Positions 607 through 64,000 of a stretch of DNA of 64,000 bases are shown here, piece after piece. Under the pieces are notes generated by a model that did no database searches, was not told the origin of the DNA, and saw nothing but the letters and a program-made list of their open reading frames with translations. Numbering within the stretch: position 1 is the stretch's first letter; each line of letters starts with the position of its first letter. This DNA comes from Escherichia coli (GTDB lineage: Bacteria > Pseudomonadota > Gammaproteobacteria > Enterobacterales > Enterobacteriaceae): assembly GCF_003019035.1 (NCBI RefSeq), contig NZ_CP027448.1; one strand, given 5' to 3'. A program made the position numbers and the translations under genes.

Positions 607-618
607 ATAACTATACTC

Positions 619-3456: not shown

Positions 3457-4016
3457 CATTTCTCATCAAGCACGGCCTGAAGTTCTGCCTTTATCCGGTT
3501 CTGGCGGCGGATTTTATCCAGACGCGTTGCCGCATACGCTTCCTCCTCCTGAGAAATATGCTCCGTCACATACCCTTCCGTGTCATACCGGCAGGCACCG
3601 GCTTTCATGGCACACAGATAGCTTTCTGAACGGGTGATGGCCTTCAGCGCCCTGCGCAGTTTTTTATGCGAGAGTGGGATATTCCGCTGCGCCACGTCTT
3701 CCATTAACACGTCCCGGATACCACAGGCCAGAAGCCGGGGTGTGTCACCGTCAAACAATCCCGGCCACCAGGGCTTCAGGGTGTTCACGGCCTCATCCAG
3801 CGTGGGCAGGTTCAGATAAATGGACAGCGCCTGTCTGGCCTGCGCTTTTTTTGCCGCCAGCTCCGCTTCCCGGGCTGCTTTCTCGGCCAGCTTCTGCTTT
3901 TTCACCTTCCATTTTGGTGGCGTGGTGACATTGATGATGGTTTTCCGGCTGCGGACAGGCGTCTCTCCTTCCGTTTTCCGCTTCAGTGTCAGTACAGGTC
4001 GTTTTTGCTCTGCCAT
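3456..4016 (-). CDS. finO: FinO RNA chaperone (fertility inhibition), intact 186 aa
   Basis: From ATG at 4016: [53 protein letters not shown]...[10 protein letters not shown], near-identical to FinO as recalled; no IS interruption. Confidence 0.95.
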
Positions 4017-4118
4017 GCTTACTCTGACCTTCGTGAAAATATGCCCTGCAGGCCGTTGAAACAACTCATCGTAACAGGAAGTTAATTTCAACGACCTTTA
4101 ACGTATAAATACTGACAA

Positions 4119-4978: not shown

Positions 4979-5036
4979 AAATATCCTGTGTTATGTTGTT
5001 TATTAATAATCAGAATCAGCGTCAGTATCATACCAG

Positions 5037-5783
5037 TCACAACGCCAGAATGCCCAGCACAGCCAGATGACAGGCATAGAACGTCGGGAAAAAATCCCCG
5101 GGCCAGAAACGGGGTAATGATTTCCCTGCACACGACACCAGACCAACGGTCAGCACCGTCATCACAAGACCAGCTACAGCCGCCACATCACTGATAGTAA
5201 GGTTAAGAGCAGGAATAACAGCCAGCAGGCATGTAACCAGAACCAGACTCTCCGCTCTGTATTCCGCCCGGTATACCCGGTAGCTGGCCGCTAACATCAA
5301 CACCCCGACAATACCGTAACTGGTACCGGACAAAGGCAGCCATACTGCCAGAAGCGACATAGTCCCTGCGGAACGCCACAGGCTGCGCGTTTCACACCAT
5401 GTCAGCACCTGTGCCGCAACGGCAAAGGCAAACAGGATATTCCCCTCATACCAGGGAAAGCCGGCCAGATAATATGCGAACTGGGCAATCACTGCCCATC
5501 CCCACAACCGGTTAATGGCCTCCTGCCGGATATGCGTATGACGGGACAGATTCAGCCCCCACACCAGGGCAAAAAGCGGAAAGGCTCCTCGACCGGCCAG
5601 AAACATCCACGTCTTGTCCAGATGCAGAATGCGGTTTGCATGGTCCAGTACCATCAGCACCAGTGCCACCGTTTTGATGATATCCCGCTGTCCGGGTGAC
5701 CAGACCAGCAACGACTGCAACCAGGTATCGGTCCGGGCAGCCAGTGAATCGTTACGTGTCGTGTTCGTGTTATCCGTTGTCAT
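5037..5783 (-). CDS. traX: TraX pilin N-acetylase, 248 aa
   Basis: ATG at 5783: MTTDNTNTTRNDSLAARTDTWLQSLLVWSPGQRDIIKTVALVLMVLDH..., polytopic membrane protein, last gene after traI as in F. Confidence 0.93.
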   Translation of the reverse strand: MTTDNTNTTRNDSLAARTDTWLQSLLVWSPGQRDIIKTVALVLMVLDHANRILHLDKTWMFLAGRGAFPLFALVWGLNLSRHTHIRQEAINRLWGWAVIAQFAYYLAGFPWYEGNILFAFAVAAQVLTWCETRSLWRSAGTMSLLAVWLPLSGTSYGIVGVLMLAASYRVYRAEYRAESLVLVTCLLAVIPALNLTISDVAAVAGLVMTVLTVGLVSCAGKSLPRFWPGDFFPTFYACHLAVLGILAL

Positions 5784-5802
5784 CAGTGTTTGTCTTCCTG
5801 TA

Positions 5803-8800: not shown

Positions 8801-11073
8801 AGGGAGGCCGGTTCAGCCCGCCCCGGCACAACAACCGTCATCGAATCTTCACTGACGGATGCCACCTGCAGGCGGTCACCGCCGGAGACGCGGAGTCCGG
8901 GAATTTTCCCTGTCACCCTCAGACGCTCGCCGTCTGCCACCGGCATTTTTTCCGGCCGGAACAGCGACCAGCTGCTGTCCAGGGAGGAAATACGCACCAC
9001 CTGCGTTTCGCCCTGCGCATCCCGCAGGGTCAGGCTGTGACTCTGCGCCGTCACCCGATCGATAACATAGAGGTCATGACTGCGTGTCTCCGGGTTCCAC
9101 TGCTCCATCACCATCCCCGGACGGTACATATCCCGCAGATAACGGCTCCGGCTGTCCAGCCAGACCGGTGACAGAGCGGTCATGGTCACCTCCGGGTGTC
9201 CGAGCACGCCCTGTGTTTTCAGCTCACTGCGAACGGCCTGTGTCAGTATGGCCTGTTCCCGTACCCCGCTGACCTGTGCCACGCTCTCTTCTCCGGCTTT
9301 CACGCTGGCCGCAAAATCTCCGGCCAGCCGGGCATAGCGGACATTACGGTCCGGTTCACTGATGATGGTGGCCGGTCGCTGTTCTCCCCCCTGCCAGCGA
9401 TATGTGTTCACCCCGGCATCTTTCATGGCCATCAGTGCACTGCCTGTACCGGTTCGCTGCCCGCTGTCGGTTATCAGGACCTGTACGTTATGACGTGCGG
9501 CACCGTCCAGCAGGGTTAACGTCTCTTTCAGGGAGAGTTTTTCGCCCTGGTCAACGATAACAGTACTGCCCAGCGTGAAGGCCATGCCTTCCAGCAGCTG
9601 ACGACGTCCGGTTATCAGCTCACCGGACAGCCGTTCATCCTGCTTCAGGTTCATCTGCGAGCGACGGTCAGCAGCGATAATCTGCACTTCCCGCCCCTGC
9701 TCCCGGGCCATCATGACCAGTTCAGCCACCCGCTCACGCTGCCCGGCTGCACCGCCCTGCCCGGACACAATGGCCAGCGACGGACGGTCCTGTGCCAGAA
9801 CACTGACGGCATCGCTGTAGCCGGCCGTCCGGGGGACACTTTTCTCCGGATGTACGGTCACCCGGTTCTGTTTCATGATATCGCGACTGAGTGCCCGGAC
9901 TGACAGTTCATCGAGCACATGAATCCCGGACGTGAACAGCCCCTTCTCACGGTCAAGGGGGATGAGTTGCTCACGGCTGATGGCCTCATCGATACCGGCG
10001 CGTGCCCGTTCAATCACACCATTTTCCGGCGGCAGTATACCGACCGTTCTGGCCAGCACGTCCGTGTACGTAAACTGCACTTTTCGTTCACTTAATCCGG
10101 CAATCGCCTGTGTCACCGCCTGCTGCACATCCGGCCCCTCCTGTGAAACAGCCCCGGGCGCCTGCGTGCGGGTCTCCGCACGCTGATCCGCCGCGTCACG
10201 ATATGCCCGGATGTCGAACCCGGTTTCCTTCAGCGTCTGCATCCATTCAGCCATTCTGACTTCAGGATCGACGTGCTGTTTGGATTTTCGCGTATCCAGT
10301 GCCGCCACATCCCGGGATTTCAGCGAGGCGTCCTCCCCGACGGCCTCCCGGATAGTCTGCGAGCGTCCAGAAAAGGCCTCCACCGGTATGCCCAGCATTT
10401 CCCACATACCGTGCTGACCCACCACTTCGGTTTCATAGCCCAGCGCCTCAACCTGCTCTTTCAGTTTTTCCCGGTAGAGCCTGCCAAAGGCAATCTGATT
10501 AGCGTACACATTCTCAATGAACCCCGTTTTCCCCACTTTGTCACTGCTCAGTGTCTTCCATTCGCCGTTATGCTGCGTGACATTAGCCACCACCGCATGC
10601 GTGTGTAACTGTGGTTCCTGATCGCGACTGGTGTCGTGGTTAAACAGTGCCATCACCAGATTACCGGTCAGCACCGTTTCTGACTGTCCGTCCGTCATCA
10701 CCCGTGTGGAGGCCAGCGCCTCCACCTGACGGACAGCAAAATCCACGGCCTGGTTATGTGCTTCAATAAGACGTTTGTCCCCCCCGAGCATGGCCATCAT
10801 GGAGACACTTTTGGGAGCGGAAAAGGTCAGGTCGTAGCCGGGACGATGCCTGTTACGGCCATCCTGCATGCGGCTTAAATCCGCCCCGTCTGGCAACCTG
10901 CCCTCCAGAAGGCGGGTAAAGACATCCTTATCGACACTGCCCTGCAGCCCCAGTTGTTCAGCCCCCTGGCCGGCCCAGCGTTCTCCCATGCTGCCCAGCA
11001 CATAGTAATTATCCTTGTCGGTATAATAGTTCCCGGCACTTCCGGCCGATCTGACCTGCGCAATACTCATCAT
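5803..11073 (-). CDS. traI: TraI relaxase/helicase, 1756 aa
   Basis: From the MM at 11073: MMSIAQVRSAGSAGNYYTDKDNYYVLGSMGERWAG..., HTHAVVANV (3-His relaxase motif), Walker A GYAGVGKT; length equals F TraI. Confidence 0.97.
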   Translation of the reverse strand: MMSIAQVRSAGSAGNYYTDKDNYYVLGSMGERWAGQGAEQLGLQGSVDKDVFTRLLEGRLPDGADLSRMQDGRNRHRPGYDLTFSAPKSVSMMAMLGGDKRLIEAHNQAVDFAVRQVEALASTRVMTDGQSETVLTGNLVMALFNHDTSRDQEPQLHTHAVVANVTQHNGEWKTLSSDKVGKTGFIENVYANQIAFGRLYREKLKEQVEALGYETEVVGQHGMWEMLGIPVEAFSGRSQTIREAVGEDASLKSRDVAALDTRKSKQHVDPEVRMAEWMQTLKETGFDIRAYRDAADQRAETRTQAPGAVSQEGPDVQQAVTQAIAGLSERKVQFTYTDVLARTVGILPPENGVIERARAGIDEAISREQLIPLDREKGLFTSGIHVLDELSVRALSRDIMKQNRVTVHPEKSVPRTAGYSDAVSVLAQDRPSLAIVSGQGGAAGQRERVAELVMMAREQGREVQIIAADRRSQMNLKQDERLSGELITGRRQLLEGMAFTLGSTVIVDQGEKLSLKETLTLLDGAARHNVQVLITDSGQRTGTGSALMAMKDAGVNTYRWQGGEQRPATIISEPDRNVRYARLAGDFAASVKAGEESVAQVSGVREQAILTQAVRSELKTQGVLGHPEVTMTALSPVWLDSRSRYLRDMYRPGMVMEQWNPETRSHDLYVIDRVTAQSHSLTLRDAQGETQVVRISSLDSSWSLFRPEKMPVADGERLRVTGKIPGLRVSGGDRLQVASVSEDSMTVVVPGRAEPASLPVSDSPFTALKLENGWVETPGHSVSDSAKVFASVTQMAMDNATLNGLARSGRDVRLYSSLDETRTAENLARHPSFTVVSEQIKARAGETLLETAISLQKAGLHTPAQQAIHLALPVLESKNLAFSMVDLLTEAKSFAAEGTSFTELGGEINAQIKRGDLLYVDVAKGYGTGLLVSRASYEAEKSILRHILEGKEAVTPLMERVPGGVMESLTSGQRAATRMILETSDRFTVVQGYAGVGKTTQFRAVMSAVNMLPESERPRVVGLGPTHRAVGEMRSAGVDAQTLASFLHGTQLQLRSGETPDFSNTLFLLDESSMVGNTDMARAYALIAAGGGRAVASGDTDQLQAIAPGQPFRLQQTRSAADVAIMKEIVRQTPELREAVYSLINRDVERALSGLESVKPSQVPRQEGAWVPEHSVTEFSHSQEAKLAEAQQKAMQNGEAFPDVPMTLYEAIVRDYTGRTPEAREQTLIVTHLNEDRRVLNSMIHDAREKAGELGKEQVMVPVLNTANIRDGELRRLSTWETHRDALVLVDNVYHRIAGISKGDGLITLQDAEGNTRLISPREAVAEGVTLYTPDTIRVGTGDRMRFTKSDRERGYVANSVWTVTAVSGDSVTLSGGQQTRVIRPGQERAEQHIDLAYAITAHGAQGASETFAIALEGTEGSRKQMAGFESAYVALSRMKQHVQVYTDNRQGWTDAINNAEQKGTAHDVFEPKSDREVMNAERLFSTARELRDVAAGRAVLRQAGLAGGDSPARFIAPGRKYPQPYVALPAFDRNGKSAGIWLNPLTTDDGNGLRGFSGEGRVKGSEDAQFVALQGSRNGESLLADNMQDGVRIARDNPDSGVVVRIAGEGRPWNPGAITGGRVWGDIPDNSVQPGAGNGEPVTAEVLAQRQAEEAIRRETERRADEIVRKMAENKPDLPDGKTELAVREIAGQERDRAAITEREAALPDSVLRESQREREAVREVARENLLQERLQQMERDMVRDLQKEKTLGGD

Positions 11074-11087
11074 AAACGTATATCCCT

Positions 11088-11116
11088 TTGACATATCCCG
11101 GCATCAATCCCACAAT
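11088..11116 (+). promoter_or_regulatory. Candidate vapBC promoter with ATATCC/GGATAT operator-like repeats
   Basis: TTGACA (11088..11093), 17 nt, CACAAT (11111..11116); ATATCC occurs three times and GGATAT once between 11081 and 11140, upstream of AGGAGG-ATG of vapB. Confidence 0.3.
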
Positions 11117-11154
11117 GGATATACACAAGACATATCCACATAAGGAGGCAAATA

Positions 11155-11382
11155 ATGGAAACCACCGTATTTCTCAGCAACCGCAGCCAGGCGGTCAGAC
11201 TGCCAAAAGCGGTTGCATTGCCGGAAAACGTAAAACGCGTTGAAGTGATTGCTGTCGGACGAACCCGAATCATTACGCCTGCCGGAGAGACATGGGACGA
11301 ATGGTTCGACGGAAACAGTGTCAGCGCTGATTTTATGGATAACAGGGAACAGCCTGGTATGCAGGAAAGGGAGTCATTCTGA
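11155..11382 (+). CDS. vapB: VapB/VagC antitoxin (AbrB/SpoVT-type)
   Basis: 75 aa: METTVFLSNRSQAVRLPKAVALPENVKRVEVIAVGRTRIITPAGETWDEWF...; stop overlaps vapC start (TGATG). Confidence 0.9.
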   Translation: METTVFLSNRSQAVRLPKAVALPENVKRVEVIAVGRTRIITPAGETWDEWFDGNSVSADFMDNREQPGMQERESF

Positions 11383-11780
11383 TGCTGAAGTTTATGCTCA
11401 ATACCAACATCTGCATTTTTACGATAAAGAACAAACCCGCCAGTGTCAGGGAACGTTTTAACCTGAACCAGGGGAGAATGTGCATCAGTTCGGTCACTCT
11501 GATGGAGCTGATATATGGTGCAGAAAAAAGCCAGATGCCTGAACGTAATCTCGCTGTGATCGAGGGATTTGTTTCCCGCATTGACGTTCTGGATTACGAC
11601 GCTGCTGCTGCCACACACACCGGCCAGATAAGAGCAGAACTTGCCCGTCAGGGACGCCCTGTCGGGCCATTTGATCAAATGATCGCAGGTCATGCCCGCA
11701 GTCGGGGACTGATTATTGTGACTAATAACACCCGGGAATTTGAACGTGTGGGCGGCCTGAGAATTGAAGACTGGAGTTGA
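11382..11780 (+). CDS. vapC: VapC/VagD PIN-domain toxin
   Basis: 132 aa: MLKFMLNTNICIF...LMELIYGAEKS...DQMIAGHARSRGLIIVTNNTREFERV; PIN acidic residues in the usual positions. Confidence 0.9.
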   Translation: MLKFMLNTNICIFTIKNKPASVRERFNLNQGRMCISSVTLMELIYGAEKSQMPERNLAVIEGFVSRIDVLDYDAAAATHTGQIRAELARQGRPVGPFDQMIAGHARSRGLIIVTNNTREFERVGGLRIEDWS

Positions 11781-11788
11781 CCTGTTCA

Positions 11789-13942
11789 TCAGAAATCATC
11801 TCCCGGCTCAACATCCTCCCCGCGCTCCCGGTGCACATTAATGTTCACCTCTTCACGACGCTGCATCTGCTGCTGGATGTCCGGATGATTTTCCTGTTGC
11901 CATGCCTCATAAGCGGCCATATCCACCACTTCACCGGATTCACTGATCCCGGGTGGCAGTTGCTGTTCCATCTCTTCTTCCGGTTTCATTTTCAGCTCCT
12001 GCTCGATCCCCCCTACCGGAACATTCACACCTGAATCTGACTTCTTATCGTTGATGGCAGGAGACACCGGCTGTTGCGGCTGTTCAGCCTGAGTCACGTC
12101 TTCTCCGGAAACAACCTCCGGGACATCCGGTTCGAAGAGGCTGGCCATCTGACGACCTTCTGCTTCCCTTGCGGCAAGTACGGCACTCAGACGGTTCTCC
12201 ATTTCCGGGTTGATGTCACGCGGAATAAACTCCGGAGCGACCTTCGGTCGTGTCTGATATTTCAGAGAGAGTTTTACTGCCGGATACGGTCCGGGCAGGG
12301 TGACATAACAGGTCAGATCCGGCAGAGACTGAATGTCGGAATAACTGACCAGCGTCTGGCGCTCCATATCCTTACCGGTCGATACCCCGTCACGTACCGG
12401 ATCAGCACCGTAGGAATACTGCTCGCTGGCTTTCAGGTGCTCTTTCTCACCAATTTCACCGGCAGCGAACTCTGCAATCTTATGGCTGGGAGAACGGAAA
12501 AAGGCACGGGTGTTCATGACGTCAAACAGCGAGGCAGCCGCTTTCTCACCGTAGATATCTTCCAGCTGGGCATAGGACTGGATACCAAACACATAACAGC
12601 CACCGAACTTACGGGCTTCCGGCAGGATCTCCACCAGGTCCGGCAGTTTGTGTAACGTGGGTAACTCATCACAGAAAAACCACACACGACGGTTACGGTT
12701 TTCTCCCATTGCCAGCAGACCACGAATGGCAATGGACAGCCACATGGAGATCACCGGCTTCAGGGAGGCATGGGTGTCGGCATTCGACGAAATAAACAGC
12801 CAGCCGTTTTTCTGATCTTCCCGGACACCACGCATCCAGTCACGGATGGTAAAAGACTCACCGTTATGCTCAATCCCCTGCAGGTAACGGATGGCTTTCA
12901 CGTAGTTGGTCAGCACAGCACGGATGGAAATCGCCGTTTTCTCAATTTTCTCTTCCACCAGGTTGGCCGCCGGTGAATTACGCAGGAAGGTACGCAGTTT
13001 TTCGATTTTGATGGAAAGCAGTGTGTCCACCAGTTTGCTGTAGCTGCGGTTGGGGTCATTACGCATCAGGTACGCCGCTTCCGCAAAAATGGTACGTCCT
13101 GACCCCTGCCAGAACGGGTCCTCTTTTGTGCCCATCGGGATCAGCGTGTTCGCGGTATTATCAAAATCCGGCTGTGTCAGGCACTCCTTCCACAAATCCC
13201 AGGCGGCACAGCGGGCATCCAGCGGATTCAGGATTTTATCGATGGAGGGATCATAGTAACTTTTAACAAATTCCCCTGAACGGTCATAAATCACCACCAT
13301 ATCTCCACGCTGACGGGCGTAGTTGGCCAGACGACGGATAACTTCCGACTTACCGGCCCCGACCGTGCCGTGCAGACAGAAGTTCTGGATTTCGGAATCC
13401 CGGATAATCGGCAGGTCGCCAATCCGTATATCGGAGTCCTTGCCGTCTTTTTTCAGCATCCGGGCAACGTCTTTCGGATTGTCTGTCAGCTGACGACCAC
13501 CTGTGACTTCATTTTCGCTCTGTTGTTTACCCTGACGCCCCAGAATCCAGGAGACAACAAAGAAGGTAATCAGGCAAATAACCAGTGCCACAACTGTGGC
13601 CAGAACGAATGCGGACCATAGCTGCTCTCCGCACCAGATCATATATTTATCATGCAGTACCTGAGCAGCATTCATCCGGAAGGTTTTGCCGTAATACTGG
13701 ATCTCATATACCGGCTGGGACTTGATTAAATCCCGCATGCCTTCCAGCGTGGTACACCACCAGTAAATACAGCCGTTCACAAACGTCTGCCAGCTTATTT
13801 TTACCCATAAAACCAGACCAACGAGTATCCAGAAAAAAATAAACAGGCAGTAAAGCATGATATTGGCGATCTGGCTGAACATGCGGATACGCATGGACGC
13901 AATCTGACCGCCCTGGGTCATATCCTTTGCGTTAAAACTCAT
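11789..13942 (-). CDS. traD: TraD type IV coupling protein, 717 aa
   Basis: [31 protein letters not shown]..., Walker [10 protein letters not shown]-terminal ...[10 protein letters not shown] as in F/R100 TraD. Confidence 0.97.
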
Positions 13943-14193
13943 GATGATATTCCGAAGAAAAAAGTCAGTCGGACTGATTATTAATGATGAAAAGATTAAT
14001 AACCGTTAAATTCCGGCTTCGCCGGCAACACTTCACGGTCGCACAAAGAATTTGCACAACCGCTCAGTGTTTTCATATTTATTTCGGAAACGCCGGGGAG
14101 AAATAAAATTTATTTTATTTCTTTCCGGGGTTGGACAACGAGCAAAGCGAGGCGTCAGTCAGGAGGCCGGTCAGACCAGCCTCCGGAAGATAA

Positions 14194-14925
14194 TCAGAGA
14201 ATATTTGCGATTGATTTGGCCAGCTGGTCTTCGAGAACAGGCTTCGCCTCTTCAAATTTCAGGTTAACCTTGTTCGCACTGGAGACCACACGGGTCTGAT
14301 ATTTATGCTGGTTACCTGTTTCAGTACTGGTCTGAATTTTCGCACCTGAAGTGCCCTGACGCAGGGCGGCAACATTATCTGTTGTCACCGTTGTCTTAGT
14401 ACGCTCTGCAATCTGCACATCCGTGATCATGGTATAGTTCACATCTTCCACCATCGCATCTGCAGCCATACCCACCAGACCAGCAGCAAGGCCCACACCG
14501 AGTGTGGCACCGGCAGAATTGGAATTATATCCGGTAATACCGGCACCTAACGCTGCACCAACAGCTGCGCCTTCATAACCACGGTTCAGCCATCCCTGAG
14601 ACTCCCGCAGATCCATCTTATCGGCCTTCAGCACATTCGCCTGAATCCAGTAGTAGGCTTTATCCGGAGAAGTCACCACCTGATACCCTTTTGCTTTCAC
14701 AGCATCAGCAATTTTGCCCTGCAGCCCACTCATGTCTTTATCAGACGTGTTTTTGATCTGCAGAAATACCGTGCGTTCGCTGGCGGGTTCAAGCCAGATG
14801 GTCTCACTCATCTGGGTCTTCACCTCAAGGTTACGCTTCTTGATTGCTGTGCTCATCGCACCACACCCTGAAAGGGCCAGAGTGGAACTGACCAGTGCAA
14901 CCATCATCAATTTTTTTGTTTTCAT
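14194..14925 (-). CDS. traT: TraT surface-exclusion / serum-resistance lipoprotein
   Basis: 243 aa, lipobox [21 protein letters not shown], sequence recognised as TraT. Confidence 0.96.
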
Positions 14926-54446: not shown

Positions 54447-54695
54447 ATGATCCGCATTGAAATTCTTTTCGACCGCCAGAGCACAAAAAACCTCAAATCA
54501 GGCACACTTCAGGCGCTACAGAATGAAATCGAACAACGACTGAAACCACACTACCCGGAAATCTGGCTGCGTATAGACCAGGGCAGCGCCCCGTCTGTAT
54601 CTGTCACAGGAGCCCGCAACGACAAGGATAAAGAACGTATCCTGTCTCTGCTGGAAGAAATCTGGCAGGACGACAGCTGGCTGCCTGCAGCATGA
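54447..54695 (+). CDS. impC: ImpC, DinI-family protein, 82 aa
   Basis: ATG 54447: MIRIEILFDRQSTKNLKSGTLQALQNEIEQRLKPHYPEIWLRIDQGSA... (DinI-like pattern); overlaps impA start (ATGA). Confidence 0.8.
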   Translation: MIRIEILFDRQSTKNLKSGTLQALQNEIEQRLKPHYPEIWLRIDQGSAPSVSVTGARNDKDKERILSLLEEIWQDDSWLPAA

Positions 54696-55129
54696 GTACC
54701 GTTTATCACCGTCCGGCTGACCCTTCAGGCGATGACAGTTACGTGCGACCGTTGTTTGCCGATCGTTGCCAGGCCGGTTTTCCTTCGCCTGCCACTGATT
54801 ATGCTGAGCAGGAACTGGATCTGAACAGCTATTGCATCAGCAGACCTGCAGCCACCTTCTTTCTGCGCGCCAGCGGTGAATCGATGAACCAGGCTGACGT
54901 GCAGAATGGTGATCTGCTGGTAGTGGACAGGGCCGAAAAACCACAACACGGGGACATCGTTATCGCTGAGATCGACGGTGAGTTCACCGTCAAACGACTG
55001 CTGTTGCGCCCACGCCCGGCACTGGAGCCGGTTTCAGACAGCCCGGAGTTCCGCACACTGTATCCGGAAAACATCTGTATTTTTGGTGTTGTCACTCACG
55101 TGATACACAGGACGCGGGAGTTACGCTGA
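54692..55129 (+). CDS. impA: ImpA, UmuD-family S24 self-cleaving protein, 145 aa
   Basis: ...GFPSPATDY..., catalytic Ser in RASGESM and Lys in FTVKRL. Confidence 0.9.
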   Translation: MSTVYHRPADPSGDDSYVRPLFADRCQAGFPSPATDYAEQELDLNSYCISRPAATFFLRASGESMNQADVQNGDLLVVDRAEKPQHGDIVIAEIDGEFTVKRLLLRPRPALEPVSDSPEFRTLYPENICIFGVVTHVIHRTRELR

Positions 55130-55256
55130 TGTTTACACTGGCTGATATCAACAGTTTCTACGCCTCATGTGAAAAAGTTTTCCGCCCGGACCTTCGCAAC
55201 GAACCGGTCATCGTACTCAGCAATAACGATGGCTGTGTGATCGCACGCAGCCCAGA
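55129..55256 (+). pseudogene. impB: impB (UmuC-family Y-polymerase) 5' fragment, codons 1-42
   Basis: MFTLADINSFYASCEKVFRPDLRNEPVIVLSNNDGCVIARSP, then the frame is lost at 55257. Confidence 0.9.
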
Positions 55257-55301
55257 TTATGTGGAATTGCAAGTAACGTTGTAGTGCTGATGAGGAAAAT
55301 T

Positions 55302-57530
55302 TTATCTGACTACAATATTGATATCGTTTTCCGCAACAATCAGCATCACGGCAGGTAAACCCTCCACACGCATTTTCTGGTGTAATTTTTTGATTAAATT
55401 ATCATCTTCATTACTGGCTTTTGCGGAAAAGCCTTGTGGATGGGAGTGCCATTCGCCAACATAATCGACAACACGAGCGGTCAACTGGTGAACCCGTTCT
55501 AATGCTTCTTGTTGTCCCGCTTCTCCCCGGACAAAGGAGGCTGGAGAGGATTTACTGTCGATAGGTTCAGGGAGCACGTCAACCAGAATAATCGTTTTGT
55601 TCTTAAAATCTGTTATGCCAACAATTGCACCTCCTGTTTCATTAGGCAGTGCCTGTAAGCGGGTGTGCTGCAATTTTTGCGCTAAGCCCTGGTCATATTT
55701 AACAACCCATTCGCCAGAAATTATAGATACCACGGAATAGAGTTCAATTTCATGTGCATCCATCGCGCCTGATATTTCATCAGATACCCAGATACACAAT
55801 CGAGCATTTCCTTTGAGTGCAGTCTGGCGAAGTTGGCGTGAGAGGATACCGGCATGAACATGAATACATTCACTGGACATACGTACAGAAATATCCCGAC
55901 ATCCACCACCGACCCAACGATCGCCATAATTGTGCTGTAGGTGAGTACTTCCCCACTCACTGCTCAAAATTGCCCGATAGTATTGCCCCTCAATTGCATC
56001 AATTCGGCATTGTCTGTCTACATCCTCCATTAACATCACGCTAGACTGACCCGATGGAGTCAGAAACAGGCTAACTATTCTGGGTATATCATCTTTTAAC
56101 ACTAGAGTCCTCGGCACCTCAAAGGTGGTACTGACATCCACAACTAAGTCTGCCTCATTCATTGCCTTAGCAATATCATCATCGTCATCAAGAATACTTT
56201 TATGGATCGCCTGAGGGAGGGGCTCATGCGGATAAATAGATTTGGCAATATGCTGAATAATATGGGGTTTTGAGACTCCAATATGACAATCAAACCCAAT
56301 ATGGCGAGACAAATTATGTGGAAGAAGCCGATCTGGATCAATAAAAGTCCATGTCCCCCACCCCATTCGAATCCAAATATCAGCCAATGTACTACCAAGA
56401 GCGCCAACTCCAGCTAAAATACCTCGAAAAGCTGCACTCTCTGAATCAACAGCAGATATGTCTCTCGCATGTGTGGCCTTCATAGCCGAACGTATTTCAA
56501 CTGGTAAAAGCGGTAATTGTCGCCACTTGGTACTAATTGATCCGCCAAGAAGCCGTACGCGATGCTGTACTCCTCGCTCATTTTTTGGCGCCAGCATATC
56601 TAGTGCAGTGGCAAGTTCACCGAGTGAACTTTGCACAACATAGCCCATCACATCCGTACGTTCTGTTTCTCCGTTTCTTAGACGGGGGATCCAAAGCAGG
56701 ATAAGTAAGCCTTCTCCTTTACCAGACGTTGGGCGGATACCATCACTTGGTATTGCTTCATAAACAGCGTCAGTTAGTGGTTTTAGGAGCTCACTTCCCC
56801 ATTCATTAAGTTGTTCTTCTAATTTTCCCAGATTATCCGGGTATGTAGCCACCGTAGAAACATCGACAGGAGGAACAGCAATAGTTAATAAGCGAAATGG
56901 CTTAACGCTTGAGGTATCTTGTTCTGGTACAGCCCTTAAAATAATCGGTCGCCCCTCACTGACCATCTGGAGACTGAGCTTATTGTCAGTCGCGTGATGA
57001 TAATCGGGGTAATTGGCTGGCAAAATGAGCTGATAGGGACTCAAATAAAAAAGTTGCTCAAGTGGCTGATCTTCTCGATGTAGATGCAGTTCGGCCGATT
57101 CTCTAAGCCACCAAAAAATGCGCTCAAGGAATCTCTCGGGGGTCCAACTGCGCTCAACTGCGCTCCAGGAGGCCTCATATAGGCAAAGAATTCGTGGTGA
57201 GCCAGGTTCTCCAGCATGCTGGTGAGAAAGAACAGGGAAATCTTTCCGCAATGCATGAACCAAGATAGGTATGCTTGATTTGGGATTGACCTCAATAGCC
57301 AATCGTTCTTTACGACGAATACGGGCTTGATTACCAGAAGCCACAGTCCCATCAGCAGCATCAATGATTAGATATTCCGAGCGGTTATCATTTATTTCAG
57401 AAAATCGTAATTCTCTGACTGTGACGTAAGGATGATTCTCGCATGCTTTAAGCAGCGAAATCGTTTGTGGATAAAGGCTATCGCGCCCCGATGAATCGAG
57501 GCGCTCACCCAATTCGAAATATTCGATCAT
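55302..57530 (-). CDS. E2-like / E1 (ThiF) adenylation / JAB deubiquitinase-like triple-fusion protein, 742 aa (Cap2+Cap3-like)
   Basis: E2-like LSHQHAGEPGSPRILC(116)LYE. E1 GILAGVGALGS (G374-x-G-x-x-G379), FIDPDRLLPHNLSRH, ADLVVDVSTTFE, GGGC(544)RD. JAB NE(631)TGGAIVG and EWH(695)SH(697)PQGFSAKAS(706)NED(709). Confidence 0.8.
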   Translation of the reverse strand: MIEYFELGERLDSSGRDSLYPQTISLLKACENHPYVTVRELRFSEINDNRSEYLIIDAADGTVASGNQARIRRKERLAIEVNPKSSIPILVHALRKDFPVLSHQHAGEPGSPRILCLYEASWSAVERSWTPERFLERIFWWLRESAELHLHREDQPLEQLFYLSPYQLILPANYPDYHHATDNKLSLQMVSEGRPIILRAVPEQDTSSVKPFRLLTIAVPPVDVSTVATYPDNLGKLEEQLNEWGSELLKPLTDAVYEAIPSDGIRPTSGKGEGLLILLWIPRLRNGETERTDVMGYVVQSSLGELATALDMLAPKNERGVQHRVRLLGGSISTKWRQLPLLPVEIRSAMKATHARDISAVDSESAAFRGILAGVGALGSTLADIWIRMGWGTWTFIDPDRLLPHNLSRHIGFDCHIGVSKPHIIQHIAKSIYPHEPLPQAIHKSILDDDDDIAKAMNEADLVVDVSTTFEVPRTLVLKDDIPRIVSLFLTPSGQSSVMLMEDVDRQCRIDAIEGQYYRAILSSEWGSTHLQHNYGDRWVGGGCRDISVRMSSECIHVHAGILSRQLRQTALKGNARLCIWVSDEISGAMDAHEIELYSVVSIISGEWVVKYDQGLAQKLQHTRLQALPNETGGAIVGITDFKNKTIILVDVLPEPIDSKSSPASFVRGEAGQQEALERVHQLTARVVDYVGEWHSHPQGFSAKASNEDDNLIKKLHQKMRVEGLPAVMLIVAENDINIVVR

Positions 57531-58708
57531 TGGTTTGATACACCTGCCCTAGGAGCGGCGGCCGTAGCAGCACTTACCGCAGCTGAAACAGCACCAACAA
57601 TAGCGGGTATTAACTTCCCGTCTCCAGCCACTTCAAATTCAAGGAACGCTGTATCTTTAAGATCCCCCGTACAGCTAAACCAACCATCAACACTGTCCAG
57701 AATATCCTCATACTCACGCTTAGCCCGGATGCACGGTGGATCATAATCATCATCAAGTATCTGATTGCTACTCGATACAATTGTTGCCCCGGAACGAGCC
57801 TGACCTAAAGCATTACGGGCCGCATCACAAACTTCAGCATTCTCCCCCCATTGTGACCAGCTATCATAGGAAAGTGAATGCCATGAACAATGATGCGGTG
57901 TGAGGAGAAGATCATATTCTAGTGCCTCAGCATTGCTTTTGTAACGATCCCATAATCGCTCCCAGATGAGAACTTCTGCGTCTCCACCTAATAGAAAGTG
58001 CATAGGATTACGGGAATATGCAGAGGGCAGTATTTTCATGTTCATGATGATACTGGATTCGTTTTTAGAAAGAGCTTCTTCCAAATATTCATCATCTTCA
58101 TGTGGTGCGGGCGCCAGAAGCTGTGCGGAGAACACTTCTGAAATTTGCCCGTCAATTCTGGTGAATGTATCTCCAGCTTTGATAAGAATGGCACTCAGAT
58201 CATCTGTTTTGCCATTAATATCTTCACCCATGATAAGGATTCGATTACCGCTAGATGCATAACCATGTTCCCGCCAGTATTTTACTCGGCGCCGTGCTTC
58301 TGTATTAAATGCCTGAGCATCTTCGCAAAGTGTGTGACTTTTGGAACGACGCCGAAAAATCAATGGTGATGACCACAATTCTCGAATAATGATACGCTTT
58401 TCTGAACGTTTCACATCGTCATCTGGATAATCTTCAGGACGGCCCAGCCAGAAATGTTTACGCAGGCCACCGCAATGATCCTGATCGGGATGACTGAGCA
58501 TAAAAACATCAATAAAGGGACGATCTTTTTCATCATACTTCAATCTGCTACGTAATGCCGAGGCAACATCAGGTGTGTCATCATTGGGGTTATCAGCAGC
58601 AGAGCGAATATGTACATCAATCAGAATGGATGTGCCCCGGGTGTCGGCCAAACGTACCAGTGTCATATCACCGTTGCCGACTTGGAAAAAAGTAATTTTG
58701 GCTGCCAT
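57527..58708 (-). CDS. Metallo-beta-lactamase-fold hydrolase, ComEC/Rec2-like subtype, 393 aa, with Ala/Gly-rich C-terminal tail
   Basis: FFQVGNGDMTLV, LSHPDQDHCGG, LLGGDAE and LTPHHCS follow the ComEC-type MBL motif order. The AGGAG SD favours ATG at 58708 over 58714. The stop overlaps the next gene's start (ATGA at 57527..57530). Confidence 0.78.
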   Translation of the reverse strand: MAAKITFFQVGNGDMTLVRLADTRGTSILIDVHIRSAADNPNDDTPDVASALRSRLKYDEKDRPFIDVFMLSHPDQDHCGGLRKHFWLGRPEDYPDDDVKRSEKRIIIRELWSSPLIFRRRSKSHTLCEDAQAFNTEARRRVKYWREHGYASSGNRILIMGEDINGKTDDLSAILIKAGDTFTRIDGQISEVFSAQLLAPAPHEDDEYLEEALSKNESSIIMNMKILPSAYSRNPMHFLLGGDAEVLIWERLWDRYKSNAEALEYDLLLTPHHCSWHSLSYDSWSQWGENAEVCDAARNALGQARSGATIVSSSNQILDDDYDPPCIRAKREYEDILDSVDGWFSCTGDLKDTAFLEFEVAGDGKLIPAIVGAVSAAVSAATAAAPRAGVSNQ

Positions 58709-58767
58709 CGACATCTCCTTTAGGGATACGAAAGATTGAGGTTAAGAGCATCTATTGCTAAGATACA

Positions 58768-58795
58768 TCTAGTAATTATACTAGTCTAGTAATTA
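58768..58795. promoter_or_regulatory. Candidate operator in the divergent promoter region
   Basis: Direct repeats TCTAGTAATTA at 58768..58778 and 58785..58795, enclosing the palindrome TACTAG-T-CTAGTA (58779..58791). Confidence 0.4.
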
Positions 58796-58842
58796 GACGT
58801 ATATTTTGGACTTAAATTGTAAGTACAGGAAATTATTGATAA

Positions 58843-59697
58843 ATGAGTGATAAAATGGTGAGAACTGGTCATTGGAGCCAAGAAAGACGGCTTGAATTCA
58901 TCGATTTTCGCCTACTGTGGGAAGGTCGGCTTAACCGTGCAGATCTCACGACATTTTTCAGAATTTCAGTTCCGCAAGCCTCATTAGATTTGGCAAAATA
59001 TCAAGAAGTTGCGCCAAACAACATGGTGTATGATCGAACTCAGAAGGCTTACATTACGACTCCTGATTTCAAACCTGTTTTTACAAGCTTTGACAGTAAT
59101 CATTACCTGAATGAACTACTTGGGCGAGAAAATGAAATAGTGGATCCTGATGATAGTTTCATTGGGTGGGTACCCCCGGTAGCCAGCCTTCCTCTCCCTG
59201 CCAGGAAAGTACAACCTGAAATATTGATTGATTTAATTCGAGCCATGCAAAGAAAACAGGCTTTGGTTGTTGATTATCGCTCAATGACTAATGAACCAGC
59301 AATTCGTACGCTATACCCAACAGCATTTGCACATGATGGGCATCGGTGGCATGTTCGTGCTTATTGTTTTAAGTCTACAATGTTTAAAGATTTTGTTCTT
59401 GGTAGGTTTTTTAAAATCGTTGAATTTGTTTCCCCACCGACATCAATTCCACAAGATGTGGACTGGAATACATTTATTGACGTGGTAATAGGTCCAAACC
59501 CTAACTACGATATGAATAAACGGCTATCTATTGAACATGATTATCAAATGGTAAAAGGAGAAGCAAAAATCCACATACGTAAAGCGCAATTATATTATCT
59601 TAATCGTCGATTAAATTTGGATGTAAATAGCGATGGTTCAATAGATGACAAACAGCAGATCATCATGCTCAGAATAGACGAGTCTAAAACCTATTAA
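58843..59697 (+). CDS. wHTH-WYL-domain transcriptional regulator (CapW/BrxR-like), 284 aa
   Basis: N-terminal RRLEFIDFRLLWEGRLNRADLTTFFRISVPQASLDLAKYQ (wHTH); WYL-type core ALVVDYRSMTNEPAIRTLYPTAFAHDGHRWHVRAYCFKSTMFKDFVLGRF. Confidence 0.78.
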   Translation: MSDKMVRTGHWSQERRLEFIDFRLLWEGRLNRADLTTFFRISVPQASLDLAKYQEVAPNNMVYDRTQKAYITTPDFKPVFTSFDSNHYLNELLGRENEIVDPDDSFIGWVPPVASLPLPARKVQPEILIDLIRAMQRKQALVVDYRSMTNEPAIRTLYPTAFAHDGHRWHVRAYCFKSTMFKDFVLGRFFKIVEFVSPPTSIPQDVDWNTFIDVVIGPNPNYDMNKRLSIEHDYQMVKGEAKIHIRKAQLYYLNRRLNLDVNSDGSIDDKQQIIMLRIDESKTY

Positions 59698-59709
59698 GGG
59701 AATATTTAT

Positions 59710-60228
59710 ATGAATGCGAATGATGTTAACAAACGGAATAAAGAATGGATGATTGTAATCATTATTATCTATCTTTTTATTTTGTTATGTATAGCAACAT
59801 ACGCTATTGGGGCTATGTCTCTAGGTTGGTTACCAACACCTTACGCACCATTAAGGGTGCCACTGATGTGCGGAGCAATTGCCTATATAGGTGGTTGTTT
59901 ATATTGTTTTCGTGCAATTTACCTCAATAAATGTATTAGAAAACAATGGGATCCAGATTGGCATGTATGGTATTTCATTCGCCCACTGACCAGTACAATC
60001 GCAGGTGCTATCAGTTATTTATTCCTTAAGGCGGGGTTGTTAGTTTTGGAGTCTAGTTCCAATGTAGGAGCTAGTGAAATGGGTTTCTTTGCGCTGGCAT
60101 TTATTGCTGGTTTTAACGTCGATAAATTTGTCGCAAAAATCGAGGAAGTTGCAAAGGCTGTCTGGGGTATTGAAAAAACTCGAAGCTCGACTAATAATGA
60201 TGCGAAAAATTCGGAAAAAAAAGAATAG
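59710..60228 (+). CDS. Four-TM membrane protein with charged C-terminal helix, 172 aa
   Basis: Hydrophobic segments ~13-35, 50-70, 85-108 and 122-137; starts 13 nt after the WYL gene stop; no motif recognised. Confidence 0.6.
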   Translation: MNANDVNKRNKEWMIVIIIIYLFILLCIATYAIGAMSLGWLPTPYAPLRVPLMCGAIAYIGGCLYCFRAIYLNKCIRKQWDPDWHVWYFIRPLTSTIAGAISYLFLKAGLLVLESSSNVGASEMGFFALAFIAGFNVDKFVAKIEEVAKAVWGIEKTRSSTNNDAKNSEKKE

Positions 60229-60274
60229 TCTGGATGTATTTAAATTAAAATGAAATTAGTGCTGAGCTATTTTA

Positions 60275-62486
60275 TTACTTTCTCTTATTTCCTGGGGTCG
60301 CGCCCCCAGTGAGCTTATTCAAAAGTTTGTCCACTGCCTGTATATCGTTTTCTACAGCGGCTTGTTCGTCATCAGTCAAAGGGATTTCCTGCATCAGCTT
60401 GAGTAGATTCTGGCGACCTTCCAAGTATTGTGCTTCAGATGAAGATTTTGGCATATAAAATGAGCATTTTGCACATGCCATCCGATGGGGGCATTGCTCA
60501 AAAAAGTCATAAGTACAGAAACCGTGTCCAAGATCATAATAACGCCATGGCTTCCCGGATGCTACCAGCCCTTCAGCTATCGCGTCTTGATCAATGAGAA
60601 CTGAAACCATGCGGCGATTACATTCAAAGTAACCAGCTTTATCCAGTGATCCTGCCAACCTCGTCGGTGTAATTTCGACATAATGTCGGGTAGATTCAGG
60701 TGAAGAATGCCCCAACCATTTCTGTAGCTCAAAAATATCAAGTGGTTCCCTGGCGTTGTAAAGCTGACTGGCTATAGTGGCTCTTGCCCGATGGCTGGTG
60801 ATTTTACCTCTGGCATCCTGCTCAGGTATACCAGCCTTTCTGCATAGCAAAGGGATTAGCGAATTATTAATATAACTACTGTGTACCCGTTTCCCCCTGT
60901 GCATGAACAAAAAACGGACGCTTTCACCTGTTTTAGAATCTTCCTGGAGGGGGTGGGGGTTACGAACAAGTTCCCATTGTTCGATATATTCCCCGATAAT
61001 AGGGTCAACTGGCTTTGTGAATGCCGCGTAAGTCTTGCTAACGGGTACATCTATCAGACAGATACGGGATACATTATTTTCTTCTGGCTGTTGCCAGCGG
61101 ATACACCCACACTGCATACGTAGAATTTCATCACGTCTGAGGCCTCCAAATAACCAGAGAACGCTGAGTGCTCTGACCATCTCCAGTGGATAAAAATAAG
61201 GATATGCAACACAGTTTGGTAAATCCGACTCCTGCAGGTTCTGTCCGGCGTGAAGTAATTTACACCACATATCATCGGCCACAATACGAGGCTCTGGTCC
61301 AACCAGGGAAGTCAAGCTACGCGGTGCCCTGAAAACTCTTTCTGGGCTGAATCGTACAGGTATCCATCCCCATTCCTGCAAGTCATGAAAGAAAGTTCTA
61401 ATATGACCCAACATCCTGGCTCTCGCTGCAGGCATCATCATTTTGCCACGACGGTCACGATACATGCCCCCAGGGGTTGCCCATTCACCAACTTTCATTC
61501 TACAAGCGGCGGTCACCCAGACGATCGCGGTGTCCCGTGTCCAATCAGATGGTGACAGACAGGTTGGATAGCACTCAGCTAACCAGCTGACCACACTTTA
61601 GCAAAACGTACCAACCGGACAAAATAGATGAAGGGCGAAGTACTGAGGTAGCACGCCACCGTTTGCACCATACCAGCCATTTAGTTGGTACATCAGCTGT
61701 TGCATTATATTCGCGGGGAGGACGGCGACGTTGTGTTATTCGGTAATCAACCCCTTCCTCAATAGTCCCTGATGCAGCCAGTATACGCGATAGAGTAGCT
61801 GAGGCTTCCCGGAGGGAATCCGGGCACGTTGCAGCAATCTGTTGCAACGTGGTCACGGTGATATGGTCTAGTTGAGCATCCCTTTGCAGAAGCATTGCCA
61901 TACACATGGCATTTCTGATGCCGTTGTTCCGACTATCACGAGGCACATATCCCAGAACCTGCATCATATTGTCAAGCTGGCTGACGGCAAAATCGGTGCT
62001 CTGTCGGCCAAAAACCTTAAGACAGAGCCGATATTGATAGAATATGCCACAGTGTTCCAGCCGCTCAAACCCACATAGCAACCATGCTAACGCTATAACA
62101 TATTGCCGACAGTTGCCGCTGGCTCCAAACCGTCGACGAAATTCCCCTTCGCTGTTGCAAATAACTTCTAACCACTCTTCTTGTGTCCAGGCCCAGTATG
62201 TTTTCCGGATGCGCTGCATCTCTAGGACTATATCGTGAATAGATGAATTGTAGGGGGCCTTGGCCGCATGCATTTTTGTTAGCGTGTCGCGTAGTGGTAA
62301 AAGAAGGCGGGAAAGCCGTTTTTGTATATCAGGTGACCAGTTTTTACCTCCTTGCTGGAAGTGGTCGACCAATGTATCCAGTGCCGCAAGCTCGCTTTCA
62401 GAGATCTCCGATCGGGTATCCCAAAGTAGGGCAGGAAGACTGAGTGATGTTGTCGGACAAGGCGCTGTATGTTCAGATTGCATCAT
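60275..62486 (-). pseudogene. Large tyrosine recombinase (Tn554 TnpB-like) split by a 1-nt frameshift into 303-aa N-terminal and 439-aa catalytic ORFs
   Basis: ORF 61575..62486 has no catalytic residues and ends ...GWYVLLKCGQLVS*. ORF 60275..61594 (track start is a GTG) continues ...WLAECYP... and carries GGLRRDEI, SHRARATIASQL, GHSSPESTRHYVE (R-H-R-Y) and a CPHRMACAKC motif. The frames overlap at 61575..61594. ATG 62486 overlaps the upstream stop (ATGATG). Confidence 0.65.
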
Positions 62487-63535
62487 GGAGAAGGATCCTG
62501 CTGTTGTAGTACAGTAAGGCGGCAAGTATGCAAGGATGCGACCGTGTAATTGAAACGACTACTCAGATCACGTGCGCTGAGATGAATATAGAGCAGAGTT
62601 GACTGGATACGACGGTGGCCAGCGAATGCAGCAATTTCGTGGATGTCCCACCCCACGCGTGCCAGTTCTGTCAGACAAAGATGTCGGAATGTGTGGGTGC
62701 TGATGAGTGGAAGATCAGCCTTAATAGCTAAACCGCGAACTACTTTTGACCAAGTCCAGTTGCTAATAGGTTCTGCCCGATTACGCGGAGAGCGTGAGAG
62801 AAACAACGGACCGCGAGATGAGCTTAGCATACGACGTTCAGTGAGCCATGCTGTGTAGAGTTCCCCCGTCACAGGAGAATAGGGCACAACCCGACCAAAG
62901 CGGTTTTTGGTATGCTCAGCGCGCACAGTGAGCAAGCGTTGAGAAGGGTCAATATCTCCGGTAGCTACTGTGCAAAGTTCTTCTCTGCGTAATCCGCAGT
63001 CGTAGGCCAGTGCCAGCATAAAACGAGTACGGATATCAGCTTGTCCGGCTACCTCAAGAAAGCGCAACCACTCCGCATCATCCGGGATCCACGGTAGCCG
63101 CCGCTGCAACGGCACTATACCAGCTTTTCCTTTCCCTCCGTTTTTCCAGACACCTCGTCTGACAGGATTTCTCTCCCGTATCCCCTCCTCACAAAGCCAA
63201 TAGTTGTACAGTCGTACCACCGTCAGCCGGTGGCGGATAGTGGCAGCTGCCAGCTGGCGACCGGTATGCAGGCTGCGGACATAGAGTGCGACCGTATCAC
63301 GTCCAGCGACAGCAGCCGTCAGGGCAACAGAGTGACAGAAAGCGAGCCAGTCATTGACGCCACGGGCATAGGCATCAATGGTGTTTGGAGCACACAGCAG
63401 GTCCTCCTGCAGGCACACCCACCGGCAAGCTGAAGGATCGGCCGACAGAAAAGGCAGCGCATCCAGCAGTTTCTTGTGCACAGCATCCCCCTTTTCGATA
63501 ACAGAATGTGTTGTATGAAATATAGTCAATTCCAA
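62483..63535 (-). CDS. Tyrosine recombinase (TnpA/XerD-like), up to 350 aa
   Basis: Catalytic set GLRREEL, HTFRHLCLT, GHRRIQSTLLYIH. The track start (63535) is a TTG only 8 nt from the element end; GTG at 63481 with a GGGGGA SD is a plausible alternative. Confidence 0.85.
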   Translation of the reverse strand: MELTIFHTTHSVIEKGDAVHKKLLDALPFLSADPSACRWVCLQEDLLCAPNTIDAYARGVNDWLAFCHSVALTAAVAGRDTVALYVRSLHTGRQLAAATIRHRLTVVRLYNYWLCEEGIRERNPVRRGVWKNGGKGKAGIVPLQRRLPWIPDDAEWLRFLEVAGQADIRTRFMLALAYDCGLRREELCTVATGDIDPSQRLLTVRAEHTKNRFGRVVPYSPVTGELYTAWLTERRMLSSSRGPLFLSRSPRNRAEPISNWTWSKVVRGLAIKADLPLISTHTFRHLCLTELARVGWDIHEIAAFAGHRRIQSTLLYIHLSARDLSSRFNYTVASLHTCRLTVLQQQDPSP

Positions 63536-63543
63536 ATAACATA

Positions 63544-64000
63544 GAAGCGAAGCGGCTGGGCATAAAAATGGGAGTACCGTGGTTTCAGCTGAAGTCGGTG
63601 AAATTTCCGGAGCCGGTCATCGCCTTCTCCAGTAATTACGCGCTATACGCATCGATGTCGAACAGGGTTATGTCTCATCTCGAGGAGCTGGCGCCGGGCG
63701 TGGAGCAGTACAGTATTGATGAGATGTTTCTCGACGTGCGGGGTATTGACAGCTGCATCGATTTCGAGGATTTCGGCCGGCAGCTGCGTGAACACGTCAG
63801 GAACGGGACTGGCCTGACTATCGGTGTCGGAATGGGGCTAACCAAAACGCTGGCAAAGTCAGCACAGTGGGCTTCCAAAGAGTGGCCACAGTTTGGTGGC
63901 GTGCTGGCGTTAACGCCAGGCAATATCCGCCGTACGGAAAAACTGCTGTCACTGCAGCCGGTGGAGGAAATCTGGGGGGTAGGCAGCAGGATATCAAAGA
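63544..64000 (+). pseudogene. impB: impB 3' portion (from codon 43), continues beyond window end
   Basis: Open frame EAKRLGIKMGVPWFQLKSVKFPEPVIAFSSNYALYASMSNRVMSHLEELAPGVEQYSIDEMFLDVRG...GVGMGLTKTLAKSAQWASK...IWGVGSRISK, colinear with UmuC residues ~43-195. Confidence 0.9.

Follow-up and report, generated by a model that had tools for sequence, protein, structure and literature searches.

What is the recombinase module at positions 60275-63535 of this 64,000-nucleotide stretch of Escherichia coli DNA (hereafter the window), and can it still work? The window is part of an F-type conjugative plasmid; over the region studied, pSE11-2 and several recent plasmids match it at 99.8-99.9% identity. 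Three open reading frames (ORFs) lie on its minus strand here, at the positions listed in the initial annotation of the sequence, which already read them as two genes. We find that the trio is indeed two genes, encoding tyrosine recombinases of 332 and 736 amino acids (aa), and that the larger gene is split. Very probably, the module is the engine of an 8.3-kb element specific for umuC and related to Tn554, in which one extra A broke the large recombinase, so that this copy is probably immobile.

The small gene, in the TnpA position (62483..63481, minus strand), encodes an apparently intact, 332-aa Xer-like tyrosine recombinase. The product matches Pfam Phage_integrase (5.6e-29) and has a SAM-like N-domain. 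It scores 93 bits against the XerC and XerD models, far under their equivalog cut-offs of 330-335. Hence, the earlier label 'XerD-like' holds for the fold only and is no more than a description of it. The gene had been drawn from 63535. Its start is most likely GTG 63481, behind GGGGGA; the resulting protein of 332 aa matches RefSeq and all homologues. The alternative start, TTG 63535, would fall within the terminal repeat of the element. The stop codon of the small gene, TGA (62483-62485), overlaps the ATG (62486-62484) of the next ORF. The coupling of the two genes by an ATGATG overlap, as first proposed, was therefore confirmed; the shared ATGA lies inside 'ccATGATGcaa'.

The middle ORF (61575..62486, minus strand) is the upstream piece of the broken gene. 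Its 303 aa align to residues 1-298 of full-length homologues and form a family-specific, all-alpha N-terminal domain. As noted at the outset, catalytic residues are absent, and we obtained no match in Pfam or NCBIfam. The third ORF (60275..61594, minus strand) is the downstream piece. Pfam (Phage_integrase, 1.8e-13), the alignment and a homologue model identify a core-binding domain, a catalytic domain and a Cys-rich C-terminal tail. All catalytic residues (R, K, H-x-x-R, H and Y) are kept, corresponding to invariant R449, K483, H564, R567, H592 and Y601 in the alignment. Judged by homologues, DNA alignment and an intact allele, the two pieces make up a TnpB-like tyrosine recombinase pseudogene of 2212 bp (60275..62486, minus strand); the intact allele has 2211 bp and encodes 736 aa. 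In an AlphaFold2 model of an intact, 78%-identical homologue (P0001), with an overall pLDDT of 78, residues ~20-240 form a confident all-alpha domain (pLDDT near 90). A structure search with this model, for which the aligned part of the model is not reported, recognised only Xer-like core-binding and catalytic domains, and gave no convincing relative for the N-terminal domain.

The two pieces are separated by one nucleotide. Aligned with the DNA of the closest intact homologue, from Enterobacter ludwigii, the window has exactly one extra base, GTGTGGTC[A]GCTGG. This is a coding-strand A at 61588 (T on the plus strand), visible as a single-column gap in alignments, and it changes GGT CGC TGG to GGT CAG CTG G. 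The initial annotation had expected a removable base near 61583-61590 to join the ORFs. Deleting the A does so, giving ...LLKCG-R-WLAECYP..., and the restored Arg is found in at least 90% of homologues. A search with the conceptual fusion returned more than 100 homologues (41-79% identity), all single proteins of 732-790 aa (about 735) that cover 100% of the fusion. An E. coli allele without the A, with 99.2% identity, is annotated in 12 records as one 736-aa coding sequence (CDS) of 2211 bp. With the 303-aa domain as query, we found 533 protein clusters among 1.84 billion representatives, and the domain was always N-terminal. Where complete, these proteins have 712-786 aa. Shorter matches end throughout the gene, and these scattered ends are as expected from short contigs and decayed copies.

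Prokaryotic transposons with tyrosine recombinases are of five kinds: ICE/IME, SE, GInt, RIT and Tn554 (PMC10214605). We attach almost no probability to a true three-gene unit, as in RIT, GInt or SE, with the middle ORF as a separate accessory protein. RIT elements have three tyrosine recombinases of about 315-410 aa, each with a catalytic Tyr. The RIT-type resemblance suggested initially does not stand, as there are two genes here and the middle ORF has no recombinase domain. A non-catalytic middle protein is known from SE and GInt (PMC10214605), and RefSeq annotates three CDSs in about 94 plasmids. However, homologues at every distance are single proteins of ~735 aa, and the intact E. coli allele is one CDS. 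Furthermore, the family profile has no match to Tfp or IntB of SE (3.6% and 0.7%), or to ORF2 or ORF3 of the integron-like elements (ILEs) of Pseudomonas (3.1% and 3.9%).

It is just as hard to credit that faulty sequencing or assembly introduced the extra base and that the gene on the real plasmid is intact. The commonest assembly error is a single-base indel, but the A lies outside any homopolymer (GGTC-A-GCTGG). Using a 49-nt allele-specific query, we found the same A in 94 independent complete E. coli assemblies, belonging to two haplotype groups that differ at 18 other sites. Because the A is outside a homopolymer and occurs on two haplotype backgrounds, we take it to be a mutation rather than an assembly error.

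For the split gene to work and the element to stay mobile, either the halves would be made as two polypeptides, the second by reinitiation at GTG 61594, or ribosomes would shift frame by +1. In favour, neither ORF is otherwise interrupted, no catalytic residue is lost, and the frames overlap, with the GTG 17 nt ahead of the stop. Conversely, the middle and third frames are open jointly for only ~20 nt (61575-61597), and we saw by eye neither a Shine-Dalgarno sequence before GTG 61594 nor a slippery motif in the overlap. Exactly this base sets the intact allele apart, and all relatives, whether close or distant, have the fused form. Among 94 genomes the frameshifted allele is never chromosomal and never at a second independent site, and it has substitutions at invariant residues. 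We therefore regard a working split gene as improbable. The family does contain breaks at this junction. Five unrelated, N-domain-only representative proteins (P0143, P0156, P0159, P0166 and P0256) lose homology exactly at G-R-W and continue into unrelated tails. Breaks among homologues are ~2-fold denser at positions 289-318 of the profile hidden Markov model (HMM) than elsewhere. These breaks speak for a split gene, but their excess may be a search bias from the N-domain query, or may mark a weak spot at the domain boundary. Programmed frameshifting was considered as a candidate and rejected, given the lack of a slippery site and a junction excess that is weak and query-biased.

By comparing copies in unrelated umuC alleles, we placed the whole integrative element at 55257..63543 (8,287 bp). 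Host sequence outside it begins, on the left, with umuD (54692..55129, plus strand) of a plasmid umuDC operon of impAB type, recognised as an ORF and from the umuD annotation in near-identical pSE11-2. It is followed by the 5' fragment of umuC (55129..55256, plus strand; translation MFTLADINSFYASCEKVFRPDLRNEPVIVLSNNDGCVIARSP), comprising codons 1-42 and GA of codon 43. This left flank diverges from chromosomal umuC as far as the left junction. The 3' part of umuC (63544..64000, plus strand) starts at codon 43 (GAA GCG AAG, E-A-K), runs past the window end and is annotated in pSE11-2 as 'umuC, missing N-terminus'. GA is present at both junctions. When the flanks are joined with GA counted once, the UmuC frame is restored (...VIARSP-EAKRLGIKMG...). 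Thus, the element is inserted at the Glu43 codon. The small recombinase gene begins 62 nt inside the end that abuts 3' umuC and points away from that end.

The two ends of the element, TTATGTGGAATTGCAAG... and ...CAATTCCAAATAACATA, are imperfect inverted repeats of each other. We found the repeat by comparing the ends by hand and by pattern search; automated repeat finding on each end was unproductive. The recombinase-distal arm of this repeat (TATGT...GGAATTG) has the sequence TTATGTGGAATTGCAAGTAACG (55257..55280). By comparison of copies, it is the same on E. coli chromosomes and plasmids, and a Klebsiella pneumoniae relative with 60%-identical recombinases has it unchanged. The recombinase-proximal arm, ...TAGTCAATTCCAAATAACATA (63520..63543), is conserved in the E. 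ludwigii and K. pneumoniae relatives and, more loosely, in those of Pseudochrobactrum. A promoter-like site, ATAACA-17-TATAGT (63498-63526, plus strand; 9/12 consensus matches), lies inside this end of the element and faces 3' umuC.

Insertion occurred at the same nucleotide, and in the same orientation, in six umuC contexts. GA alone is common at the junctions, and there is no conventional target duplication; the bases after GA vary (GAA, GAG or TAA). In Tn554, a junction core of 6-7 bp is brought along from the preceding site. We searched PLSDB for an uninterrupted copy of this plasmid umuC allele, using 55106-55256 joined to 63546-63695 as query, and found none. The search matched 2,587 plasmids, 33 of which cover at least 80% of the query, at ~80-85% identity; for ~2,300, the match is partial, at 90-95%. 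The CI5 and CEC15 plasmids have the left flank of the window and a different right flank.

Relatives in other hosts share the E-A-K site, the orientation and a CAATTCC-N5-AACAT(A/T) end. They were found on the E. ludwigii chromosome (large recombinase 78% identical), a K. pneumoniae IncF plasmid (60%) and a Pseudochrobactrum plasmid (49%). The K. pneumoniae junction has TA in place of GA, and the cargo of this relative is similar to that in the window, with genes for a WYL regulator and a 393-aa protein in the same order. The E. ludwigii relative (8945-14102 of its locus) carries an intact umuD-umuC directly after the recombinase genes, as if to replace the gene that the element disrupts. We did not find the far end of this element within the 10-kb flank. 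A more distant pair (339 and 721 aa, 35% identical) is present on the megaplasmid of Pseudomonas aeruginosa AR439. It lies inside rulB, after SSNYALY (~codon 77), in the opposite orientation, and its cargo includes chlorite dismutase and cupin genes. The same rulB (locus 1-14600) also holds an SE-type element, with 538-, 617- and 117-aa genes and a mer operon, that ends just before NDGC.

A mechanism can be proposed from these features. The small Xer-like and the 736-aa recombinase would be translated from the overlapping genes, and both would bind the imperfect terminal inverted repeats. The element would be excised as a circle, the putative intermediate, with the predicted junction ...CAATTCCAAATAACATA-GA-TTATGTGGAATTG..., and would reinsert in one orientation where umuC-family genes have a conserved A-E-A-K stretch, at GA of the Glu43 codon. 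By analogy with Tn554, we infer that both proteins would be needed; a division of cleavage between them is inferred as well. The extra A at 61588 leaves a 303-aa N-terminal ORF and a catalytic ORF without a good start.

The natural distribution of the two alleles bears on mobility. We counted them with allele-specific queries of 48-49 nt, each unable to seed on the other allele. The frameshifted allele was found in 94 records from 94 genomes, and all 98 copies are on plasmids; none is chromosomal. The intact allele was found in 12 records from eight genomes, with eight of its 13 copies on chromosomes and five on plasmids. The same 8,287 bp occur in chromosomal umuC (between hlyE and dsbB) and in strongly divergent plasmid umuC alleles, at the same nucleotide and in the same orientation. 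Strain CEC15 has one copy on its chromosome and one on a plasmid, with no differences between them in 8,287 bp, and the flanks of the two are different alleles. AMSCJX02, M1 and M3 each have one chromosomal and one plasmid copy of the intact element. Intact copies in other E. coli thus appear to move between chromosome and plasmid. The distribution of the alleles fits a loss of mobility by the frameshifted one, and so supports the initial suggestion that the frameshift would immobilise the element. The window copy has probably lost autonomous mobility and is passively inherited, and decaying, on F-type plasmids.

In the haplotype tree, ((window type, APEC type), intact type), the extra A falls on the branch shared by the window and APEC types. 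Later changes in the large gene number 11 nonsynonymous and eight synonymous in the frameshifted lineages, and two and five in the intact lineage. They include, at conserved positions, R621C (window lineage), P491L (pSE11-2) and R507C (APEC type). R621C, a missense change at 60622 (minus strand; YFERNRR to YFECNRR), affects an Arg that at least 90% of family members keep, and was seen in the alignment only in the lineage of the window and pSE11-2. The substitution pattern in the frameshifted lineages appears to run in the direction of relaxed constraint. IS1 or IS3 elements have removed the cargo and far end in most plasmids, and only eight frameshifted copies are complete. In the one double-copy frameshifted record inspected, the copies lie within a duplicated backbone segment of ~33 kb. 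This record, E. coli CD45 plasmid pEc-CD45-2 (positions 1-49900), is marked linear; the duplication of the F backbone is in tandem, includes the whole element and may be an assembly concatemer.

The element was next compared with Tn554, the sequence of which was taken from Staphylococcus aureus pWBG14, reached via erm(A). An ordinary RHRY recombinase combined with a large one is known from SE and Tn554 (PMC10214605). As with tnpA and tnpB of Tn554, the ordinary and large tyrosine recombinase genes of the window are co-oriented and overlap by 4 nt. In hhalign comparisons with Tn554 TnpB, the family profile gave 95% / 3e-8 (A1) and 89.5% / 2e-6 (A5), over 280-300 columns. The match spans the core-binding and catalytic domains and extends into a shared C-terminal motif, GxC-x8-CPH-x2-AC-x2-C. 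As a control, the small recombinase of the window gave 85% / 6e-6 over 145 columns, in the catalytic domain only. The profile gave 16% with Tn554 TnpA, 0.7% with SE IntB, 3.6% with SE Tfp and 1.2% with TnpC. TnpB thus appears to be the best match tested for the large recombinase, with a modest signal. The small recombinase is 28% identical to TnpA over 169 aa, no better than its similarity to the Xer models. The Tn554 copy on pWBG14 (9175-11102) also has a split tnpB, with ORFs of 519 and 105 aa.

The choice of target is a further likeness: in hosts whose target proteins have diverged, insertion takes place at a single conserved position of a gene with a link to DNA repair, and in a single orientation. 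In radC, the insertion point of Tn554-like elements is conserved from genus to genus (PMC3788773). In Listeria, Tn554-like elements sit in uvrX, the equivalent of UmuC, and carry their own uvrX (PMC8508797), as the E. ludwigii relative carries umuDC. The third gene is missing. Transposition of Tn554 needs TnpA, TnpB and TnpC (PMC3414803), whereas no tnpC-like (DUF6262) gene is conserved after the pair in five genomic contexts. A TnpC or Tfp hidden within the large protein was considered and rejected on the profile comparisons (1.2% and 3.6%). Compared with the Tn554-like elements of Firmicutes (Tn558, Tn559 and Tn6188), the family has neither a TnpC gene nor a TnpC domain, and it has an unrelated N-terminal domain of ~300 aa. 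It also differs from Tn554 in its Gram-negative hosts, its target at umuC codon 43 and its twilight-zone sequence identity. Of the Tn554-type likeness put forward initially, the architecture holds, the homology to TnpB is probable but remote, and TnpC is absent.

In Actinobacteria, pairs of tyrosine recombinases, one long (611-828 aa) and one short (~350 aa), have been defined in silico as 'Tn554-related', with one subfamily lacking TnpC (Van Houdt et al. 2012, PMC3414803). Their two-gene architecture is that of the window module. Plasmids of Rhodococcus and Streptomyces encode homologues that are 41-43% identical over ~87% of the large protein; these may belong to the families named in PMC3414803. 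Rhodococcus plasmid pLP1 has the same overlapping pair with no tnpC-like gene adjoining, a short partner visibly similar, by eye, to that of the window, and no UmuC homologue within 9 kb of the pair. The pLP1 pair fits the 'Tn554-related' actinobacterial class of PMC3414803.

Several points weigh against an immobile, Tn554-related element as described here. The similarity to TnpB is weak, and a generic Xer-like control also reaches 85% over the catalytic domain. Excision and integration are deduced from sequence comparison. Some of the genomes with several intact copies come from related mouse isolates (M1, M3 and M18) and so are not independent, and the nonsynonymous and synonymous counts are too small for significance. 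GTG 61594 could, in principle, allow separate translation of the catalytic half. Lastly, because both ends are intact in the window, an intact copy in the same cell could mobilise the frameshifted element in trans.

The initial annotation also named rulB elements of Pseudomonas and proposed a counterpart of them here. Its description of their target is correct; rulB ILEs insert site-specifically near the 5' end of a umuC-family gene (Rhodes et al. 2014, PMC4542609). The ILE site is GAT, the Asp codon of SN(S/N)DGC (6488-6490 of pWW0, rulB codon 42). It lies 27 bp (nine codons) upstream of the position homologous to the umuC Glu43 site. We used the ILE-bearing plasmid pGRT1 (NC_015855) for comparison. 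The ILEs resemble the window element in having adaptive cargo, recombinase genes at one end and a very short junction repeat. However, they have three recombinase genes (385, 525 and 535 aa) rather than two. They lie in the opposite orientation to the target, with xerD beside the 5' fragment, whereas here the small recombinase gene is beside the 3' fragment. Their conserved end is CTGAGGG (PMC4542609) and differs from the end here.

Homology to the rulB ILEs, with the window element as the enterobacterial member of one family, would account for the shared target gene family, for sites so close together in a conserved N-terminal region and for junction repeats that both begin with GA (GAT in ILEs, GA here). 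The GHGWC...C...CPGC cluster of ILE ORF3 likewise recalls the Cys-rich tail. The differences in gene number, orientation and conserved end argue the other way, as does the absence of specific similarity to the ILE recombinases in the profile comparisons with ORF2 and ORF3. We consider such homology very improbable. Hence, of the proposed counterpart, the shared target gene family stands and the kinship does not, the recombinases being unrelated and the sites 27 bp apart in opposite orientations. The parallel itself is real and would represent convergence on one target.

The SE and GInt elements were compared in the same way. They share with the window element one ordinary and one large RHRY recombinase, target specificity and a lack of transfer genes of their own. 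Four-gene operons are known from all three groups: xerD-ORF2-ORF3-tetR-like in ILEs, intA-tfp-intB-srap in SE and ginABCD in GInt. These operons, with a non-catalytic recombinase-fold protein and a small protein, are not matched by the gene content of the window module. SE and GInt need two further proteins, Tfp/GinC and Srap/GinD, and both are absent from the window element. The low profile scores with IntB and Tfp likewise give no specific similarity to the large recombinase.

We found no published description of this element in the literature searched, which was mostly outside subscription journals. The element in the window is a decayed representative of a Tn554-related family for which that literature has no description from Enterobacterales. 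On balance, and by a small margin, we favour the view that the intact form represents an active, so far undescribed, Tn554-related, TnpC-less and umuC-specific family. In Enterobacterales it would shuttle cargo, defence-type and other, between chromosome and conjugative plasmid, and its range would reach at least to Alphaproteobacteria. If so, at least three kinds of multi-recombinase elements would have come independently to share the conserved 5' region of Y-family polymerase genes as a landing pad: the present family at Glu43, ILE/SE-type elements at the SNND motif and, after SSNYALY, a sister clade with 35% identity. The genes umuC, rulB and uvrX apparently form a common landing site for several element families, and this is relevant to the route by which conjugative plasmids acquire defence and resistance cargo. 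The pseudogene locus itself is ordinary; the wider two-recombinase, umuC-specific family with defence-like cargo is the more interesting result. There are also consequences for annotation. The 'hypothetical protein' and the shortened 'integrase' listed for ~94 complete plasmids of E. coli are the halves of one pseudogene, and the interruption of umuC in these plasmids is the mark left by a defined mobile element. One base apart, the intact and the frameshifted allele are a natural pair for probing Tn554-type recombinase pairs with E. coli genetics.

The cargo of the window element comprises four genes (55302-60228). The first (55302..57530, minus strand) encodes a 742-aa fusion of Prok-E2_A, ThiF (E1) and Prok-JAB domains (Pfam 3.9e-22, 4.7e-11 and 1e-09), which also matches the E1-E2 and JAB models of PADLOC. 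The second (57527..58714, minus strand) encodes a 395-aa protein, named 'ComEC/Rec2 family' in some RefSeq records. This protein has no Pfam match and only weak PADLOC matches, to the LmuA N-terminus (4.8e-14) and RTasMBL (2.3e-07). The third (58843..59697, plus strand) encodes a WYL-domain transcriptional regulator (Pfam WYL, 3.9e-08), named 'BrxR family' in some RefSeq records. The fourth (59710..60228, plus strand) is a hydrophobic ORF for a predicted membrane protein of 172 aa, with no family match in Pfam or PADLOC. Judged by these matches, the cargo looks like an uncharacterised defence module built on ubiquitin-like conjugation. On chromosomes and plasmids of other E. coli, a version with 83% identity accompanies recombinases of the 60%-identical type.

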